Source: Candidatus Thorarchaeota archaeon (lineage in GTDB: Archaea; Asgardarchaeota; Thorarchaeia; Thorarchaeales; Thorarchaeaceae). From it: 64,000 nt of DNA. Both the position numbers and the translations under genes were made by a program. Positions 2,550 through 13,687 of this stretch are shown in pieces. The notes beneath the pieces are model-generated. The model was given only the letters and a program-made list of their open reading frames with translations. It made no database searches and was not told where the DNA came from. The stretch's first letter is position 1. The number at the start of each line of letters is the position of its first letter. The stretch spans positions 128,001-192,000 of the forward strand of contig RDOC01000004.1 in the NCBI GenBank assembly GCA_011364985.1. Reading direction: 5' to 3'.

Positions 2550-2667
2550 TGGTGCGGAGGGCGAGATTTGAACTCGCGATTCGGACGCCGAGTGGCAATC
2601 GCTCAGCGAACTCCTACGAGATAGGGATCTGAACCCTACGCCTTTGACCAGGCTTGGCAACCTCCGC
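2550..2667 (-). tRNA. tRNA-Leu(CAG) with a 30-nt insertion (possible non-canonical intron) at the variable arm/T-stem junction; CCA encoded
   Basis: GCGGAGG-TT-GCCAAGCCTGGTCAAAGGC-G-TAGGG-TTCAGAT-CCCTA-TCTCGTAGGAGTTC-[30 nt]-GCGAG-TTCAAAT-CTCGC-CCTCCGC-ACCA. Confidence 0.9.
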
Positions 2668-4854: not shown

Positions 4855-4876
4855 TGGGGCCCGAAGGGGGAATCGA
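4855..4876 (-). pseudogene. 3' fragment of the disrupted original tRNA-His (T-loop to CCA)
   Basis: minus strand TCGATT-CCCCC-TTCGGGC-C-CCA; His discriminator C; pairs with the GCCCGAG acceptor strand of the 5' fragment at 13538. Confidence 0.8.
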
Positions 4877-4963: not shown

Positions 4964-5194
4964 ATGGAGGCGGAATTGAAGGACATCTTGGAAAACGGAA
5001 AGGATTGGGAAAAAGCAAAAACGACTACCCCAGGACTATGGATTTGCAAAATGCCCGGAAAAGGCGACAACCCTCCGAGCCTTGTCATCATCATTAATCC
5101 AATTGAGAATATTAACCCGCCTACATCAAAGAAATTAGATAGAAGTAGATTCTTTGAAGTAACAATGTCAGTATATCGTTTCAACGATTCTTAA
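4964..5194 (+). CDS. hypothetical protein, probably a truncated member of a small archaeal 'GKDWE' family
   Basis: LKDILENGKDWEKAKTTTPGLWICKMPG...PSLVIIINP resembles a conserved archaeal hypothetical family (from memory); the C-terminus looks degenerate. Confidence 0.5.
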   Translation: MEAELKDILENGKDWEKAKTTTPGLWICKMPGKGDNPPSLVIIINPIENINPPTSKKLDRSRFFEVTMSVYRFNDS

Positions 5195-5304: not shown

Positions 5305-5379
5305 GGCCCGAGTGGTGTACTGGCAGCATAAGAGATTGTGGCTCTCTTGAAACGGGTTCGATTCCCGTCTCGGGCCCCA
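5305..5379 (+). tRNA. tRNA-His(GUG), intact, G-1 and CCA encoded (replacement copy)
   Basis: G-GCCCGAG-TG-GTGT-ACTGGCA-GCAT-A-AGAGA-TTGTGGC-TCTCT-TGAA-ACGGG-TTCGATT-CCCGT-CTCGGGC-C-CCA. Confidence 0.96.
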
Positions 5380-5449: not shown

Positions 5450-5540
5450 ATCCAACGATAGCAAAGGAGCCACAGCCGTTCATTTTCAATTGGACCTGAT
5501 TTTGCATCAGGCTGTCCCTCCAGGAACGGCACTGGATACT
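5450..5540 (-). ncRNA. candidate TnpB omegaRNA (3' scaffold plus guide)
   Basis: Overlaps the tnpB 3' end; GCCGTTC(5530-5524) pairs with GAACGGC(5481-5475) around hairpin CCTGAT-GCAAA-ATCAGG; ends in TGTGG followed by flank-derived CTCCTTTG...; 5' boundary unknown. Confidence 0.6.
5462..5469 (-). pseudogene. middle fragment of the disrupted tRNA-His (3' side of the anticodon stem)
   Basis: CTCCTTTG directly follows the element's right-end TGTGG; TCCTT pairs perfectly with AAGGA of the 5' fragment. Confidence 0.7.
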
Positions 5541-7672
5541 CTGTCTTGAACATGAATGATGTTTCGGGCTGCATTCACATCAGCATGGAAATGTTCGTCA
5601 CACAATGAACAATAGAAGTATTCTCCACCCCTTCTCTCGACGGTGGACTGCTCATCTGCAACACGAACACCACGCTCACCACATACATGGCAGGTCTGAG
5701 AAGTGAACCTTGGGTTCACTGTCCACACACTGTATGGTGAGTGTCCAAGTGACACTCGCATATATCTCACTGTGTCTATAATCTTCCCCCATAGATTCGA
5801 ACTTAGGTTGTACGACAGGTCCTTTGACCCACCATGAGCCTGAAAGCTCCTGAGATCCTCGAAGAAAATCTTCTTGACTCGATGCTCCTCACAGAACCAG
5901 ACGGTCTTTGATGCAATGATTCGGGCGATCTCACGGTCAAGACGACGGATCTTTCTCCATAGGGCTTTGATATGCCTGTCCTTCTTGAGGATGTGTTTTG
6001 GATATGACAGTCCTGATCGTTTGCGTCCCCAATTGTTCCTCTTCCTGTCTGTAACTGATTGCAGATCATAGGCCTGCTTTCTCAAGAACTCTCTCTTCTT
6101 CACAAGCTGGTCCACTCTCAACAGGAGTTCCCTGTATTCCTTCCCCTTCATCACCGAGAGCACCACGGGAACTCTAATTCCTCTGTCAACACCAGCCCTT
6201 GCTTCATACTCTCTTTCTCCAAGAACCTGCTGTATCAAGAAATCATCAGGAGCCAAGAAAGGAATCTGCAATGAAATTCTATTCCCCCTCAGAAGAAGTC
6301 GGGGAGGAGCGCTCCTCCTTGAACTCCTGAGTTCTGTGATCTTACTCTGAAGTTTGGTAGTTTCTTCTCCATCCTTACCCTTCTTCTGTTTCACTTTGTA
6401 GAGTCTGTGTGTCAGATGCTGTATCTCAATGGTGTTCATGAGCTGTTGATGCATATCTTCGAACATCGCCGCTCGAAACCTCAACCGCTGGGCACGATGA
6501 CAATCTCCATTGTCCTCTGCGTTCTGAGCCTTGGCTCCGTCTTTGATCGTGGCACTGGACATCCAATCCAGAAATCGAAAAGCCAAGGTCTTTCCCTTGT
6601 ACGGAGAACTCTCATGATGAGTGCCATTAATTCCTGGAGGGAGCTTGATGTGAAAGAGAATCTCATTCTTTCTCTCTGGGTCGACACTAAACCAGTACCC
6701 CTGTCCAGGCGAGTTCTCTGTACTTGCACTGAAATCCAGACTATGACTCCGAAGGCATGGAACAGAGAATAGGTATCCATTCTCTTTCCAAACCTCAAGT
6801 TTCCTTGCAGTAAGAAAGAGGATGCGTTCTTTCTCAGAAACAGAATCCTGAAGCAAGGATGCTACATACTTGCGTTGTCTTCCCCTCCATTGTATCTTGA
6901 CTCCTTGTTCCTCAAGAATGTGGTCATCCAGAGCTAGCCTGAGCTGTCTTAGGACTCCAAGGGAGTGATGAAAACCAGCCCCATCGTTCTTTGCTGAATC
7001 GCATGCATCTCTCACTCTGCGGATAAGATTGGAGGGAATATGCTTTCTTCTCAGAAGTTGAAGTGCATCAGCAGCAGACTCGCTTAGCACCTTGATCGCT
7101 GCATTGAAGAGCTGCCTTCGTGTCCAGTCTGCCAGAAGTGTACGTCCAGCGTGCTCAAGGGCATTGCGATAGAGTCGCTCAAAGCATAATGCCTGAATTT
7201 CCTCGTTCTGCTGGTAATTCAAATCCCTCATCTTCCTGAGAAGGGTATAAGCTCGCCCCCTGTATTCGGATAGTTGCTGACCAAGTGACTGCACACGGTC
7301 ATTATCCTTGTATATTCTTGCAAGCATGAGATTCACTACTTGGACATAGTTGTCAAAGAGAGAACCAAGAAGCTGCAAGTCAACCTCGTCCGCTTTCTTC
7401 CCAGAGCGCTTGGGTATCAGCGTAAATATCTCTTGATTTGGTTTTCTTGATGAAGAAAAGAAGGGGTCAGGTCTTCGATTTCTCCTCCTCTTTGCAATAA
7501 CTCTGTCAACAGAGTTCAGAACAAACGACTCGACAAGATAGGATTTCGATGGGGGTATTATAAAGTTGCCATCAATTTTCTCTTGCTTCTTCTGAGTTTG
7601 AGTGACAGAACCAGATTTCTGCTTCCAGTGATGGCGCTGGATTTCTTGCTTCATCATATGTTCCTGAGTCAT
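5507..7672 (-). CDS. tnpB: large TnpB/Cas12f-like RNA-guided RuvC endonuclease (721 aa)
   Basis: RuvC-I AGVDRG, RuvC-II FFEDL, NPRFTSQTCHVC...CSLC zinc finger, RuvC-III HADVNAARNI. Confidence 0.9.
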   Translation of the reverse strand: MTQEHMMKQEIQRHHWKQKSGSVTQTQKKQEKIDGNFIIPPSKSYLVESFVLNSVDRVIAKRRRNRRPDPFFSSSRKPNQEIFTLIPKRSGKKADEVDLQLLGSLFDNYVQVVNLMLARIYKDNDRVQSLGQQLSEYRGRAYTLLRKMRDLNYQQNEEIQALCFERLYRNALEHAGRTLLADWTRRQLFNAAIKVLSESAADALQLLRRKHIPSNLIRRVRDACDSAKNDGAGFHHSLGVLRQLRLALDDHILEEQGVKIQWRGRQRKYVASLLQDSVSEKERILFLTARKLEVWKENGYLFSVPCLRSHSLDFSASTENSPGQGYWFSVDPERKNEILFHIKLPPGINGTHHESSPYKGKTLAFRFLDWMSSATIKDGAKAQNAEDNGDCHRAQRLRFRAAMFEDMHQQLMNTIEIQHLTHRLYKVKQKKGKDGEETTKLQSKITELRSSRRSAPPRLLLRGNRISLQIPFLAPDDFLIQQVLGEREYEARAGVDRGIRVPVVLSVMKGKEYRELLLRVDQLVKKREFLRKQAYDLQSVTDRKRNNWGRKRSGLSYPKHILKKDRHIKALWRKIRRLDREIARIIASKTVWFCEEHRVKKIFFEDLRSFQAHGGSKDLSYNLSSNLWGKIIDTVRYMRVSLGHSPYSVWTVNPRFTSQTCHVCGERGVRVADEQSTVERRGGEYFYCSLCDEHFHADVNAARNIIHVQDRVSSAVPGGTA

Positions 7673-7679
7673 TGTTCTT

Positions 7680-7845
7680 CATCAGCAATATTAACTCAGA
7701 GTATTATAAAGTTATCAAGATTACTAATTTATTGTCTCTTATTTTTTCTAAAAAAGGGATATAAAGGCTTATAATTGAATTATATGTTATTTTGTTTACT
7801 AACGAAATTTAATTACATGTATGTCGTAGTGTTTTCTAAGGTATC
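7680..7845. promoter_or_regulatory. very AT-rich divergent promoter region between tnpB and the giant nuclease gene
   Basis: AT-rich tract with several TATA-like boxes (TTATAAA, GATATAAA, TTTATAA, TTATAT). Confidence 0.55.
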
Positions 7846-7848
7846 CCC

Positions 7849-10800
7849 ATGAGAGGTAGAAAGGGAAGAATAAACAGCCCAAGTGGCATCCTGAGTACTG
7901 CAATCTACATGGGTCTGGTCGCCCTGTGTCGAATCTCTAGAAACAGAGCAAGTAAGAAGACTAGAAAGTTCCACCGAAGTATCGAGAAGATGTGGGCATC
8001 AGCCCGAGAAGACTACAAGGTCCAAAAGGGCCTAAGACAGAATGACTTCTCGCCTATCAAAAATGCGGAACCAAACATGCGAGGACAATTTCTAAAATTT
8101 GTCTGGACAAGCACAAAACGATATGGAAACAAGGAGTTCAAGCGCGTCTATAGCTGGTTGGAAGGAACGGTTGGACCTCTCAATGCACTTCTGAACTATG
8201 CTGGAGCTTGCCTTCGAGACCTTGCTATGGTTCTATATCCTTTTCCACAGCCTCAGAGGTTCCAAATTCGTGAATGGCCGAACGGGACTAGAAGGATTCT
8301 CACTGAATCAGAAGCTAGTGAGATTACAAAGGATGGTACAGTAAAAGTCCACTGGCGGAGTGGGTATGAGAGGAATGGCAAGAATCCTCGAGTGTTACTC
8401 TCGCATCCAACCTTGCCTAGTCTGGATTTTGTAGACATGATACGGACACATTGCGTCGAGCTCTGTCGACAATGTTTTATCTATCACGTCCCTAGGACTG
8501 AGGCACATCGATACATACGCCTCCTTATTCATCGACTCAAGCCCTTCCTTGACTGGATCTACACAAATGGACAAGAGGGCCGTTCTGGGTTCAATCCTCA
8601 TGCTGACCATGAACTTAGGAAGATGGTCCTTGAGATAAGGTCACTCTATAGAAAAAGTGCTAAGACTAGTAGACGTATCTCGGGGCAGCATAACGAGAAA
8701 CCCATTGACCTCTCTCTTGAGAAAATCCGCCAGAAGGGCATCAAACAATTGGAAGAATCCACTGATGCAAAGGAAAGAAAGCTGTTACAGAAATTCCTAA
8801 ACTATATCGATACTGCATCAGGAGTCGTAGCACGACGTGATATCGAGAAACTAATAGGTCAGATATTGGCTCTTAGTTCACGAGAGGGTACTACTTGGCA
8901 CAGGGTCCTGCTCTCAGACCTCCACCATCCGAAGTCCCTTCGTCAGGTCATTTTTTCTGGGGATCAGCTGCTTACTTCATTCTCATCAATCCTAATAGTT
9001 GCGGAACTCCCTGTTGCAGGACATTCCGGACGAGTGGACCTGACCATTTTCATCAGAAGAGAGATTGCAGGAGAGGTCTTGTGGACTCCGGTGATGATCC
9101 TTGAGATTAAGACAAAGGCAACCTTTGATTTCAACCTCTACGGATTTGAACTCAAGCGAAAAAGAAAGCATGCTGTCACCCCTGCTTTCTACGCATGGAA
9201 ACGCACTATGACTGGGAATGAGTGGCAGAGCATTGTCAATGCAAGTCCCGACCCAGATGCCCTTAATCAACTTCGAGCCTATGAACAGGAGCTTATTGCA
9301 GAGTATAGACAGTTAGCCGCTCATGACCCAGCTCCGCCCTCCTCGCTTTGGAAAGGAGTCATTGTCTTGGATGCTGAAGCGAGTCCGGAGGACATATTTC
9401 CAGCCGTCCAGTTTCTTCTTGAAGATCTGAAGACTGGGCTCCTACAGCAGCTGATTGATCGAGATTCCTTCATTGCTGTTACACCAAAATCCCTAGCTTT
9501 AGAAGGGGACGATCCCAGGGTTTCTCTACTAGTTTCTCCAGCCAGGGGACCTACTGGATTACTCGGCGAGATGGAGCCTCCCACAAGTCTACCCATTGAC
9601 GATCCCTTTGCTGACCGAGAGAGCGACGACCGACTTCTAACACTCTATGTTTCCATTCCTTCTCCAACCTCCTCGGGAGTGACTGCAGCAAGACTCTCTC
9701 GAAACTGGCATCTCCTTCATCATATTCAGGAGTGTATTGAAACAATCTCCTCCATAGAAGATGTGGTGTGGCTAGACCTTATGGGGGATTACAAGAGCGA
9801 TGAGCTTGTCAAGAAACGATTCGGCTTGCATTCCTTGAGACAGGAGAAGATGATATCCAAGAAGTCCTTTCGGGAACTCACCTCAATCCTTCAATCCATC
9901 AGGTTTCTCGACCTGAGTCCATTCATGAACGGGATTCTTACCGAAGGCGCACAGGCATTTAGCAGCCTACTAAACCATATTGCAGCTACAATCCCAGCTG
10001 AGAATGGAGAACAGATCATCATCCTTGATGGATGGACAGACCTGCAAGATATGATTCCAAGACATCAACAGCACCTACTTCGTATCCTTGAGCGAAAACT
10101 GCTTCATGCGCTCCCTCAATCAAATGTTAACATCATCTGGATTGATGACGGTGTGCCCCATACTAAGATGAACCCAGACTACCAGCGTCAGTGCATCAGT
10201 CCTCTTAGGTATGACTCCCTCCGCAAGACTCATGTTGATGAGTTCATCTACAATATGCCAATACCCTCTCCTAGGTTCTGGTGGACAAATCCACAACATG
10301 ATGATATTCGAATCATTGTGCAAGACACCCCGACCAGAGAAAACCCCTGGAAGACGGCAATCTACGTTCCACAACTTTCGGGACTTGCAGAGAAGTTTAG
10401 AGGTCTTGCCAAGCGGGACAGAGTCATTGCTCCTAAGGAAATAGCACAGGATTTGGAAGGGAAGAAACCTATGTATGGACGAGATGTGACCCTGTGTCGC
10501 ATTCATCCATCTTCAGGTATTCTCTCAGAGGATGAACTCTCTGACCTTCTAGAAGATGCGCTCACTCTTGTGCCCAGTACCCTGAGAGAGAGGATGCCCC
10601 GACTAGAAGAAGAGTGTGAAGAAATCCAGATTTCTGAAGATGCTATCTGGCAATCTGTTATCCAGACGACTAGCTCTGCAAGCGGTTCTACGATGGAAGA
10701 AAGGATGAGAATTGATGTAACAAGACCACCCCCACGACCAGGGGGAACTGACCGATACATCGATGTTCTCATCAATGCTAAAAGAGAGCGGATTACAAGA

Positions 10801-13173
10801 TCTTGGTCCTATGACCAGACCCCCAAGCAATTTCCTGATGATGCAGATGAGTCTTATCTGTGTACATTCCCTCCAGAGTTGACGATCTCTGATGCAGTAG
10901 AGATCGACTCCATTGAAACCCGTGAACGAGAGCTTGGACGGCTCAAATCAGCAACCAGATACCTGAAGCAACAGACCTTCCTCTCACAGAAACTAAGGAA
11001 AATGTGCAGGAGGATTGAGAGGCATTGCAATCAGCAATTTGCTCTCATTAAAGACAACCCCTCACTGAAGACCAGTAACTTCTTCTTTAAAGCACTCAAA
11101 CAGGTCGAAACAATTATCCTAGAGGACACGCTAGGAGCAACTATCTGGGAAACACTCCGTTCATCTCGACAAGAACTACTTGATGTTCTGAACTCAGACA
11201 ACAGACAATTCTTAGAGGAGGTCATGAAGGAAACACCTGATGCTCTCCTGCTCTATGGCAATAATCTTGTCCTAGCAATTGTTTCTGTTCTCAAGGACAG
11301 CAACTTGTCTTTAGCAAAGCCTCTCTGGGAGTCTGTTGCTAGGTGGACATTATATCAGATAGGAATGAACAGTGACAATGATATCACAAAGACAGTCTAT
11401 AGCTTTCGAGCAATTCTCTCCAACCTGAGAGCGCGCATCAATACTCTTTCGCATCTCAATCTCCCTGAGATGATTCTGGAACAAGAGCAGGTTGGTGCGA
11501 TCATTTGGATGGAGTCTGAGGCCAGGTATGATGCACTTCTTCTAATATCTCATGATAATACTGGCTTTCTAATTGGCATTATTGAGGGACTAAACAATAG
11601 ATGGATTCCAGCAAAATGGCACTCCTGTAAGACAACTCCCCAGCAGTTAAAACACCATGTGCAGAACGCTCTCACATCCACAGATAGGACACCTGTTATC
11701 ACGACCACGGTTAGAGATTTGAGTGTCCTCCTGATACCTGCGTTGACCGAGGATGATGAACTCGTCTGGAGCTGCTTCTCTCTGAAGCATGGTAGACCCA
11801 GCGGACGACGAAACAGTATTCCATGGATAAAGCTAGAACCTGCTGAATCTCTGGCAGCGCCCAGCCACGTACCTGAGATCCCAGACGAAATTGACGAAAC
11901 TCTCCGGAAGATAATTCGGGTCAAGCACAGCATCACTCCTGTAAAGCTCCTCGTTGGTATAGATGAGGAGCTTGAGGTCTACGAAGTTCAGTTAACGGGC
12001 GAAGGCATTGAAGAACGACGTAAGTTCAGACGAACCAGAGAAGCGGTTCGATTTCTCAGAACTCCAATCAGAGAGGGAGTGGGGTATCGGTGGCAGGGAC
12101 AGACTCTCACTTGGGACCATCGCAAAGATATCGATTATGGCGATTCACTCTCTTTTCTCAGACCTCTTATTCATCGGAGCAAGTTCTACCCCGATATCTA
12201 TCATTATCCAAAGACATGCAAGGACCTCCTTACCGCAAGCAAAGGACATGAGATAATCATGGTCATCAGTCAAGAGGGACCGACATACCGGGTCAAGTTT
12301 CAGGATCTCCCAGACCAATCTGCTCTGAGAGAACTGGAGATAGCGGAACTGGACATCCATGCACTGGGCCTACTTGCAGAGTGCAAGGAACTCTTTGACC
12401 TCGGAAGCAGGACTTGGCACCCATTAGTGCTAGATGTCAACGCTATCATGGACCTCTGGTTCCCCAAGCTTCATGAATACCCCCGGCTAATTGAGGCGAT
12501 TCAGGCCGCTGATGTTAACGAGTTCAACTGGTCAAGAGAAACATGGTTCATAGAGATTAGGCTTTGGAGAAATGAACTGAGATGGTGCATCATGTCGAAG
12601 ACAACAGGACTGCCTTGGATGAACAGGGAATTCACATATATCCTTACTCTTGGAAGAGAGCCTGATAAGGAGTTGGAGGCTTTCAAGGAGGTGGTCACGG
12701 CCATTGTTCAGCCAGAGCATCTCTGCAATCTGGATGACGAGCTTGAAACGTACAAGGTGACACTCAAGGAGAGGTATAGTGAATACCTTCGGACTGTCAG
12801 TGTGGAAGACGCGGATGAGAGAAAAGCTGAAGATGAGCTGGAGAAAGCTGCTGCTATAGGCGCTCCATGGGAGAGAATAGCGTTCAGGTATAGCGGAATG
12901 AAACTCAGGAGAATAAAAAGAAACACCGTGGTTGTTGTTTCCTTGGTGTCCGGCGAAGAAGAAGCAGAGGTGTACGTGGTGAGGGATGTCCAAAGGTATG
13001 TGAATGAATCTCGGTCAGCAGGTGCAATCCACTCAGAACCTGTTGATGATGAGGTGAAGGAGAGTCTTGCAGACTATGAGTTTGAGAAGGGCGAGCTTGA
13101 AAGAATCAAGGCGGCTGTCAGGAAAGTGTTGGAGGAGGAAGGAGTCAGGTTTTCTAATGAACAGGCCTTTTAG
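7849..13173 (+). CDS. giant (1774 aa) protein with a PD-(D/E)XK nuclease domain and a degenerate P-loop-like domain
   Basis: VAELPV...GRVDLTIF...ILEIKTK...NQLRAY...KGVIV nuclease motifs; SPTSSGVT, VVWLDL and IIILDGW resemble RecA-like Walker remnants. Confidence 0.75.
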   Translation: MRGRKGRINSPSGILSTAIYMGLVALCRISRNRASKKTRKFHRSIEKMWASAREDYKVQKGLRQNDFSPIKNAEPNMRGQFLKFVWTSTKRYGNKEFKRVYSWLEGTVGPLNALLNYAGACLRDLAMVLYPFPQPQRFQIREWPNGTRRILTESEASEITKDGTVKVHWRSGYERNGKNPRVLLSHPTLPSLDFVDMIRTHCVELCRQCFIYHVPRTEAHRYIRLLIHRLKPFLDWIYTNGQEGRSGFNPHADHELRKMVLEIRSLYRKSAKTSRRISGQHNEKPIDLSLEKIRQKGIKQLEESTDAKERKLLQKFLNYIDTASGVVARRDIEKLIGQILALSSREGTTWHRVLLSDLHHPKSLRQVIFSGDQLLTSFSSILIVAELPVAGHSGRVDLTIFIRREIAGEVLWTPVMILEIKTKATFDFNLYGFELKRKRKHAVTPAFYAWKRTMTGNEWQSIVNASPDPDALNQLRAYEQELIAEYRQLAAHDPAPPSSLWKGVIVLDAEASPEDIFPAVQFLLEDLKTGLLQQLIDRDSFIAVTPKSLALEGDDPRVSLLVSPARGPTGLLGEMEPPTSLPIDDPFADRESDDRLLTLYVSIPSPTSSGVTAARLSRNWHLLHHIQECIETISSIEDVVWLDLMGDYKSDELVKKRFGLHSLRQEKMISKKSFRELTSILQSIRFLDLSPFMNGILTEGAQAFSSLLNHIAATIPAENGEQIIILDGWTDLQDMIPRHQQHLLRILERKLLHALPQSNVNIIWIDDGVPHTKMNPDYQRQCISPLRYDSLRKTHVDEFIYNMPIPSPRFWWTNPQHDDIRIIVQDTPTRENPWKTAIYVPQLSGLAEKFRGLAKRDRVIAPKEIAQDLEGKKPMYGRDVTLCRIHPSSGILSEDELSDLLEDALTLVPSTLRERMPRLEEECEEIQISEDAIWQSVIQTTSSASGSTMEERMRIDVTRPPPRPGGTDRYIDVLINAKRERITRSWSYDQTPKQFPDDADESYLCTFPPELTISDAVEIDSIETRERELGRLKSATRYLKQQTFLSQKLRKMCRRIERHCNQQFALIKDNPSLKTSNFFFKALKQVETIILEDTLGATIWETLRSSRQELLDVLNSDNRQFLEEVMKETPDALLLYGNNLVLAIVSVLKDSNLSLAKPLWESVARWTLYQIGMNSDNDITKTVYSFRAILSNLRARINTLSHLNLPEMILEQEQVGAIIWMESEARYDALLLISHDNTGFLIGIIEGLNNRWIPAKWHSCKTTPQQLKHHVQNALTSTDRTPVITTTVRDLSVLLIPALTEDDELVWSCFSLKHGRPSGRRNSIPWIKLEPAESLAAPSHVPEIPDEIDETLRKIIRVKHSITPVKLLVGIDEELEVYEVQLTGEGIEERRKFRRTREAVRFLRTPIREGVGYRWQGQTLTWDHRKDIDYGDSLSFLRPLIHRSKFYPDIYHYPKTCKDLLTASKGHEIIMVISQEGPTYRVKFQDLPDQSALRELEIAELDIHALGLLAECKELFDLGSRTWHPLVLDVNAIMDLWFPKLHEYPRLIEAIQAADVNEFNWSRETWFIEIRLWRNELRWCIMSKTTGLPWMNREFTYILTLGREPDKELEAFKEVVTAIVQPEHLCNLDDELETYKVTLKERYSEYLRTVSVEDADERKAEDELEKAAAIGAPWERIAFRYSGMKLRRIKRNTVVVVSLVSGEEEAEVYVVRDVQRYVNESRSAGAIHSEPVDDEVKESLADYEFEKGELERIKAAVRKVLEEEGVRFSNEQAF

Positions 13174-13330: not shown

Positions 13331-13502
13331 GACCTTGACATCCTACTCGGTGTTTAGGACTGACCTAGTCTTTAAAGCAGTCATCTTACCCTTTGTCAAG
13401 AAAAAAAGCAGTGTTTTTTTCTCAAGGATTTTCAGTGGGAAGCTAATATTGAACATACGGAAACACGAGCGAAGAACGAGGTGAGATACATGCAGAGATT
13501 AG

Positions 13503-13539
13503 CCACAATCCTTTATGTTACCATTACACCACTCGGGCC
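13503..13539 (-). pseudogene. 5' half of the disrupted original tRNA-His(GUG)
   Basis: G-GCCCGAG-TG-GTGT-AATGGTA-ACAT-A-AAGGA-TTGTGG; upstream context (CTAATAAG...GCTTCTT...CAATGGCCCGAG) is homologous to that of the intact copy. Confidence 0.88.
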
Positions 13540-13687
13540 ATTGTTTACTAAGAAGCCAGCGATGACCAGCTCGTTTGTTTTTTCTTATTAGGTTATCCGT
13601 TTAGCAACTCCACAAGCATCCCAAACAAAAGCATGGCATGATTCAAAAACATCTTCCATCAATCGGAAGCGAGGAGATTGTAATAGG

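Follow-up and report, generated by a model that had tools for sequence, protein, structure and literature searches.

The question raised by this locus is what kind of RNA-guided nuclease is encoded by a 721-aa open reading frame in the window (the whole 64-kb stretch of Thorarchaeota DNA that was analysed), and to what kind of element its gene belongs. A sequence-only reading had described an enlarged TnpB-like protein with an expanded N-terminal REC lobe and no CRISPR array, and had taken it to mark a transition from TnpB to Cas12 or from IS607 TnpB to Fanzor. The transposon ends, the aCas1 gene beside it, the two guides and the surrounding tRNA pieces were not part of that reading.

The enlarged TnpB protein and its family

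The gene was placed by the open reading frame list, a structure model and an alignment of homologues:

5507..7672, minus strand: tnpB, encoding 721 aa

In the translation, the motifs VDRG, FEDL and ADVN start at residues 495, 604 and 697, giving a RuvC acidic triad of D496, E605 and D698, and CxxC pairs at residues 661 and 688 form a complete Cys4 zinc finger. The triad residues are conserved in 101, 100 and 99, respectively, of 102 aligned homologues. A homologue search returned 341 proteins, the named hosts of which are Thorarchaeota, and the majority of the best 120 span 690-725 aa; with hundreds of homologues of equal length, a frameshift or fusion artefact was ruled out as the source of the length. 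At a threshold of E 1e-20, this family of ~710 aa (the 720-aa family) was present in 39 of the 85 genomes of the host's Thorarchaeota family and in 0 of the 314 other genomes of the phylum. Profile searches, as the sequence-only reading had proposed, gave weak matches confined to the last 230 residues, the RuvC-zinc finger part, with only the Pfam TNB domain above its curated cut-off. The score against NF049972 was 65 bits (cut-off 450), and that against the NCBIfam model IS607_TnpB (NF038280) was 16 bits (cut-off 350); because the latter model covers a narrower clade, the low score lowers membership of that clade only.

The structure model of the protein (pLDDT 80) has a TnpB/Cas12f fold, and its best structural match is AsCas12f (Z 18.4, rmsd 4.0, 379 residues aligned), followed by Cas12f1, Cas12p, Fanzor2 and ISDra2 TnpB at Z 14.4-15.4. 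The model begins with a disordered tail (residues 1-43), a WED strand (45-54) and a low-confidence stretch (62-92), continues with REC helices (96-298), WED strands (326-368), a helical insert (370-451) and further WED sequence (458-473), and ends with RuvC from residue 491 and the zinc finger at 661-691. The insert forms a helical bundle of ~85 aa between WED strands, and invariant residues are present both in it and in the REC helices. In compact TnpB proteins, the REC helical region is about half the size of residues 96-298. Since a WED insert and an RNA-coding tail are also present, REC expansion accounts for part of the extra length. Thus, the intact triad, the complete finger and a RuvC-I that begins only near residue 490 were all read correctly from the sequence, and structure prediction located the insertions; the claim of an expanded REC lobe stands for the enlarged helices, but the ~300 extra residues include the WED insert and the RNA-coding tail as well.

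In a RuvC tree, the 720-aa proteins formed a distinct, well-supported clade that has a long branch and lacks a supported sister. The tree was built without reference Cas12 or Fanzor sequences and its deep support is weak, so that it establishes no more than the distinctness of the clade and its separation from a 560-aa TnpB family described below. Taken together with the homologues and the genome survey, the proposal of a distinct Asgard clade of enlarged TnpB-fold proteins is upheld.

No CRISPR array was found in the window or in any fetched TnpB locus, in agreement with the earlier claim. The sole array in the genome (G000:C17:5-640) lies at the start of the same contig, ~133 kb from tnpB, and consists of nine 37-nt repeats of unrelated sequence; no cas genes were recognised beside it, and a Pfam Cas1 search of the genome found none. 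The distance, the unrelated repeat and the absence of a spacer match ruled out a link between TnpB and this array. The protein resembles Cas12f (AsCas12f1, Un1Cas12f1, Cas12f2) in its best structural match and in its weak RuvC-zinc finger profile matches; however, it has neither array nor tracrRNA and does have mobile ends, and a Cas12f or other type V CRISPR effector was ruled out.

The protein is almost certainly not an intermediate on the way from IS607 TnpB to either Fanzor or one of the described Cas12 subtypes. The Asgard host, the IS607 context and the REC and WED insertions would suit such an intermediate, as would the structural match to Fanzor2 (Z 14.8, level with others); however, the pro-Fanzor signature consists of DPG at RuvC-I and a glutamate six residues before the zinc finger (PMC10711439), whereas RuvC-I here is DRG and the canonical RuvC-II glutamate lies 56 residues before the finger, which ruled out a pro-Fanzor or Fanzor. 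The long branch without a supported sister and the occurrence in only one Asgard family also argue against an intermediate. The transition suggested earlier was therefore not borne out, and the protein is instead a transposon-borne, omegaRNA-associated TnpB.

The IS607 element and its two omegaRNAs

The 721-aa TnpB belongs to an IS607-type transposon, for which the following parts were located:

5475..5535, minus strand: transposon right end and 3' omegaRNA scaffold core, overlapping the final tnpB codons
13166..13324, minus strand: IS607 tnpA remnant that carries an in-frame stop and is 70% identical to residues 147-199 of an intact paralogue (contig C21)
13378..13391, minus strand: IS607 left end, after a GGG flank, assigned because it resembles the left ends at nine loci with an intact or partial tnpA

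In many related loci, a tnpA gene encoding a MerR-HTH serine recombinase lies upstream of tnpB (intact in L036 and others), and this TnpA scored 182 bits against the IS607 transposase profile NF033518 (cut-off 110). At the right boundary, conservation drops sharply past the end motif in 69 loci, with unrelated DNA beyond, and the left flanks of the IS607 units terminate in GGG. A GG core was found at both junctions, with no inverted repeats and no target duplication; at one locus (L004), the two junctions rejoin as an in-frame tldD-like gene with one shared GG and no duplication. A GG core and a TGGG TAM are features of IS607 (10.1101/2023.11.20.567912). The host genome also holds a second full element with an intact tnpA, on contig C21, plus several end remnants.

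The 3' end of tnpB is a conserved structured RNA with a sharp boundary between scaffold and guide and a scaffold core of only ~60 nt. A hairpin at 5520-5535 (minus strand) presents a loop that pairs with the terminal motif at 5475-5480 to form a pseudoknot, an element that is required in the reRNA of IS607 (PMC10711439). Across loci, 97.6% of the cells of hairpin and pseudoknot were paired, and 35 compensatory cells were counted compared to 11.6 in shuffles, a value above all 500 shuffles. An Rfam scan of the window gave tRNAs as its only matches. The element thus resembles those of the IS607 TnpBs CboTnpB and ISXfa1 in the MerR-HTH serine TnpA, the GG core without target duplication, the G-rich TAM-like flank, the pseudoknotted omegaRNA overlapping the 3' end and the fixed base after the end that is built into the scaffold (10.1101/2023.11.20.567912, PMC10711439); it differs in a protein ~300 residues longer, in the shortness of the scaffold core, and in the addition of a large antisense passenger gene and a second omegaRNA.

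The second omegaRNA lies within the first codons of tnpB, and its guide matches DNA just upstream of the gene:

7555..7640, minus strand: second omegaRNA copy in codons ~11-39 of tnpB, with hairpin 7625-7640, end motif 7568-7579 and guide 7555-7567
7701..7716, minus strand: target of the 5' guide, with a 13/13 match at 7701-7713 over a TATA-like box and a TAM-like GAT at 7714-7716; putative promoter

By its position and sequence, 7701-7713 is assigned as the probable tnpB promoter site. In 37 of 46 distinct loci, the 5' guide matches the locus's own upstream DNA at a minimum of 10 of 11 nt, 116-154 nt upstream, compared to 30 of 2300 shuffles (1.3%), and the guide and its target covary between loci. 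The triplet before the target is GAT, GGT or GTT in 35 of the 37 loci, from which the TAM of the 720-aa TnpB is predicted to be 5'-GDT, i.e., 5'-G(A/G/T)T, in agreement with GGT at the left ends. Folding of the 5' scaffold by itself was not better than that of shuffles (z +0.9). The disordered tail of the protein (residues 1-43) is accounted for by codons that encode this second omegaRNA. The 560-aa family has a 5' guide of its own with a different scaffold, and all 24 detected copies match at 11-12 of 12 nt, 92-99 nt upstream, in a count where 16 further loci showed no scaffold by the pattern used.

A 5' omegaRNA guide lying on its own TATA box implies self-repression of tnpB. In S. pyogenes, tracr-L represses Cas9 through a guide duplex of 11 bp formed at the Cas9 promoter (10.1101/2023.03.03.530964), and the present arrangement shares with tracr-L and with cr-like regulatory mini-arrays the short duplex and the choice of promoter (10.1101/2023.03.03.530964); in contrast to tracr-L, the 5' omegaRNA sits inside the coding sequence of the effector, the effector is a transposon TnpB, and repression is suggested by the layout.

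The aCas1 partner and the 560-aa TnpB family

Between tnpA and tnpB lies a very large gene:

7849..13173, plus strand: aCas1 gene, encoding 1774 aa, divergent from tnpB

Searches of the 1774-aa protein against Pfam, NCBIfam, PADLOC, PDB sequences and the Atlas gave no usable match, and only a fold search with a model of residues 1-884 (pLDDT 88) revealed Cas1. Residues 4-254 form a Cas1 helical catalytic fold and align to at least nine Cas1 or casposase chains (best Z 12.8, rmsd 4.5, 180 residues aligned). For a helical domain this Z is modest, but every row for the range is a Cas1 chain, and the motifs agree. The candidate catalytic residues E74, H186 and D196 are conserved. Residues 592-843, whose fold matches are RecA-like ATPases, form a RecA-like domain that lacks the Walker A lysine and is dead. 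A PD-(D/E)xK region at ~380-510 is absent from the best 50 rows of the fold search, so that its assignment rests on motifs.

The aCas1 family was found in 50 of the 85 genomes of the host's family and in 3 of 12 of one other family. At each of the 47 loci whose flanks were long enough, a TnpB lies head to head with aCas1, and it belongs to the 560-aa family in 37 and to the 720-aa family in 10. The two TnpB families are ~23% identical, and the 560-aa proteins lack the canonical RuvC-II glutamate. The tree of aCas1 shows ~7 changes of partner between them, the closest relatives of the window's aCas1 pairing with the 560-aa TnpB; such repeated changes suggest a link at the level of DNA rather than a fixed protein interface. 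The 720-aa TnpB also occurs without aCas1. The motif GTTCACTCA is present after 560-aa tnpB genes and absent after 720-aa tnpB genes, and some 560-aa loci carry two scaffold-guide units in tandem. In one locus (L206), the only such case seen, aCas1 is co-oriented with tnpA and tnpB and lies 2 kb upstream of tnpB, and in another (L020:7051-8013) a different 320-aa antisense ORF occupies the usual aCas1 position between tnpA and tnpB. The 3' guide of one 560-aa TnpB (L111) matches a site inside its own aCas1 gene (13/13). In L128 and L130, a second scaffold-guide unit lies ~60-110 nt past the stop of the 560-aa tnpB and carries the guide CCTTGTTACGACT, presumably the antisense of a conserved region near the 3' end of 16S rRNA (the 1492R primer site).

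The Cas1 fold, the PD-(D/E)xK motif and the dead RecA-like domain of the partner indicate that the pair is very probably one of the published Asgard aCas1-TnpB groups, already catalogued by computer. The description of aCas1 is credited to Makarova et al. 2020. Later, Cas1H-Asgard-1 and -2 were reported as two groups of Asgard TnpB next to aCas1, together with the GTTCACTCA motif (Altae-Tran et al. 2023, PMC10691335), and the main text of that paper describes, as found here, an Asgard host, a TnpB beside a diverged Cas1 and exactly two TnpB groups. The reported motif is found here in the 560-aa family, and the main text does not say that both groups have it; it is also silent on the ~710-aa size, on IS607 ends of the serine-TnpA type flanking the pair, on recurrent exchange of partners, on a second omegaRNA aimed at the promoter and on guides that match tRNAs. 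The TnpB-aCas1 locus is a variant of a kind that is very probably catalogued already, and it is richer than first described. In a literature search that covered Asgard or Thorarchaeota TnpB, autorepression by TnpB and RNA-guided integration based on Cas1, no experimental study turned up.

The element resembles casposons (PMC9939771) in its Cas1-fold enzyme, its Cas4-like nuclease and a preference for tRNA genes; however, no PolB and no terminal inverted repeats were seen, Cas1 is fused into a protein of 1500-1950 aa, and the partner is a TnpB. A casposon was ruled out by the lack of a PolB-size ORF in the element and of terminal repeats at its ends.

The tRNA-His locus and explanations of the element

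The element of the window lies within a broken tRNA-His gene, around which the following features were identified:

5462..5474, minus strand: 13-nt 3' guide, which matches the native tRNA-His allele in its anticodon arm
13501..13538, minus strand: native tRNA-His 5' half (nt 1-38), with a promoter region to ~13600 conserved in relatives
4855..4876, minus strand: native tRNA-His 3' piece (nt 53-74), identical to the allele of same-genus genomes
5306..5379, plus strand: spare tRNA-His(GTG), complete and inverted, with a recoded anticodon stem
4964..5194, plus strand: 76-aa ORF between the spare tRNA-His and the native 3' piece; no family matched

The 3' guide corresponds to nt 32-44 of the native tRNA-His allele, after a GAT triplet, with 7 nt seen in the surviving 5' half and 6 nt deduced from stem pairing. 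Nucleotides 39-52 of the native gene are missing, and its two pieces lie 8.6 kb apart on the same strand; genomes of the same genus have a complete tRNA-His downstream of the promoter that corresponds to ~13540-13600. The spare lies 80 bp past the right end of the element, and mismatches the guide at two positions (guide positions 9-10); no other tRNA-His was found in the genome, which is 74% complete. Joining 13389-13397 to 5462-5475, as if the IS607 unit were removed, restores a perfect His anticodon stem-loop, which lies 110 bp from the real tRNA-His 5' half, with seven loop bases present twice. In another genome (G366), which has a 560-aa TnpB, tRNA-His is split alike (1-36 and 49-74) and an inverted spare is present, and related layouts occur at tRNA-Gly, tRNA-Asp and tRNA-Lys loci. 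Guide-matched tRNAs adjoin a minority of loci, on varying sides and at varying distances.

Among the 3' guides of the 720-aa family, 7 of 67 match a tRNA at a minimum of 12 of 13 nt (0 of 201 shuffles), these seven coming from related loci and thus few independent events; the tRNA species matched is that adjoining the element, except for one best match in an intron. As ~58 of the 67 guides consist of ordinary flanking sequence and match no tRNA, the targeting of tRNAs was rejected as a rule for the whole family, and these matches point to a recurring state.

Altogether, the locus probably represents an IS607-type transposon that has an enlarged TnpB, itself probably active, and that took up an aCas1 gene between tnpA and tnpB; the fold, the intact triad, the IS607 ends, the two omegaRNA scaffolds and the identity of the partner are computed. 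TnpB would bind an omegaRNA released from the 3' end of the tnpB mRNA, with right-end flank DNA as guide, and would cut element-free alleles by way of its predicted TAM, so that the element is kept or spread, as shown for IS607 TnpB. The second guide, at 11-13 nt, would be too short for cutting and would leave TnpB parked on its own TATA box as a feedback brake, like tracr-L of Cas9. The flank guide of this copy matches the now-broken native tRNA-His, and the mismatched spare would travel beside the element, which would behave as a selfish unit that cuts the original and brings a resistant spare. The local TnpA is dead, and the intact C21 paralogue or aCas1 could act in trans. Counting against this explanation are the distance of 110 bp between the IS607 left flank and the tRNA-His 5' half, which fits more than one order of events, the ~58 guides that match no tRNA, the six guide bases matched to a deduced allele, the lack of independence among related loci and the folding of the 5' scaffold at no better than shuffle level.

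It is possible, though doubtful, that the tRNA match is only a scar, i.e., that an IS607 element landed at GG in tRNA-like DNA of an older tRNA-His island and that the spare is unrelated to TnpB. IS607 guides are flank by rule, most 3' guides are non-tRNA, tRNA ends are GGG-rich and tRNA genes are common integration sites, and the 22-nt 3' piece resembles an ordinary att duplicate. However, only a guide-length stretch of tRNA (13-19 nt) is kept after the right end, with the remainder gone; adjacent full tRNAs mismatch the guide or carry insertions in the target, and other alleles match better; and the layout recurs with both TnpB families. Unlikely, in turn, is an RNA-guided transposon that homes to tRNA genes, with TnpB-omegaRNA as the targeting module and aCas1 as the integrase, an analogue of the Cas12k CAST: TnpB-omegaRNA would mark the tRNA gene, aCas1 would insert the element with its recoded spare, and the second omegaRNA would set the dose of the complex. 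Consistent with this are the head-to-head TnpB at each of the 47 loci, the missing glutamate of the 560-aa partner, the conserved candidate Cas1 residues, tRNA matches at a minimum of 12 of 13 nt for 5 of 26 560-aa guides (1 of 130 shuffles), the position of ~20 of 55 modules within ~600 bp of a tRNA gene and the integration of casposases at tRNA genes (PMC9939771). The ~7 swaps between such dissimilar TnpB families are hard to square with a specific protein interface, however; the 720-aa protein has its full triad, occurs without aCas1 and is bounded by IS607 ends that are the work of TnpA. The ends of the aCas1 gene showed neither terminal inverted repeats nor target duplications of casposon size, and the aligned range of aCas1 lacks the N-terminal beta domain.

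A nascent, array-less type V CRISPR-like defence, in which aCas1 and the Cas4-like nuclease would write guides into the omegaRNA, is very unlikely. Cas1 with PD-(D/E)xK does resemble Cas4-Cas1 adaptation modules, and the tandem scaffold-guide units at some 560-aa loci would fit, but the guides of the 720-aa family are plain genomic flank, no array is present at any locus, and genomes carry multiple mobile copies and end remnants. Even on the cautious view of an IS607 TnpB with an aCas1 passenger, the locus offers a ready test case: the TAM of its TnpB is predicted to be 5'-GDT, the scaffold is very short, and a putative feedback guide is built in. Cas9 and class 1 CRISPR systems are known to repress themselves through guide RNAs, and no report of this was found in the literature for a transposon TnpB; the putative promoter-guide design would be common to two unrelated TnpB families beside aCas1, and the copies that split a tRNA gene resemble "cleave and rescue" elements, occurring naturally in archaea. 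Should aCas1 turn out to be steered by TnpB, it would found a new class of programmable integrases and provide a living model for the first meeting of Cas1 and type V effectors.

Further observations were made at other tRNA genes. An intron-containing tRNA-Leu in the window (2550-2667, minus strand), missed by ARAGORN defaults, was found by Rfam and BLAST. In nine loci (L005, L007, L008, L010, L031, L033, L109, L200 and L203), the guides copy the 5' end of tRNA-Lys(CTT), and the adjacent convergent tRNA-Lys mismatches the locus's own guide, with better matches in the alleles of other genomes, a pattern that resembles an arms race. The host genome itself has a locus (L037, G000:C15:184471-188700) with a split aCas1 gene, where the 560-aa guide equals the 5' end of the adjacent tRNA-Asp (13/13); the guides of L115 and L116 match the adjacent tRNA-Asp in the same manner, and L116 has three extra tRNA-Asp 3' pieces. 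Finally, a further module in this genome (L038, G000:C16:48800-58700) has at its flanks a tRNA-Gly and two degenerate 3' halves of tRNA-Gly, directly oriented, and a 981-aa Schlafen/AlbA_2 protein encoded between them is a possible defence cargo.
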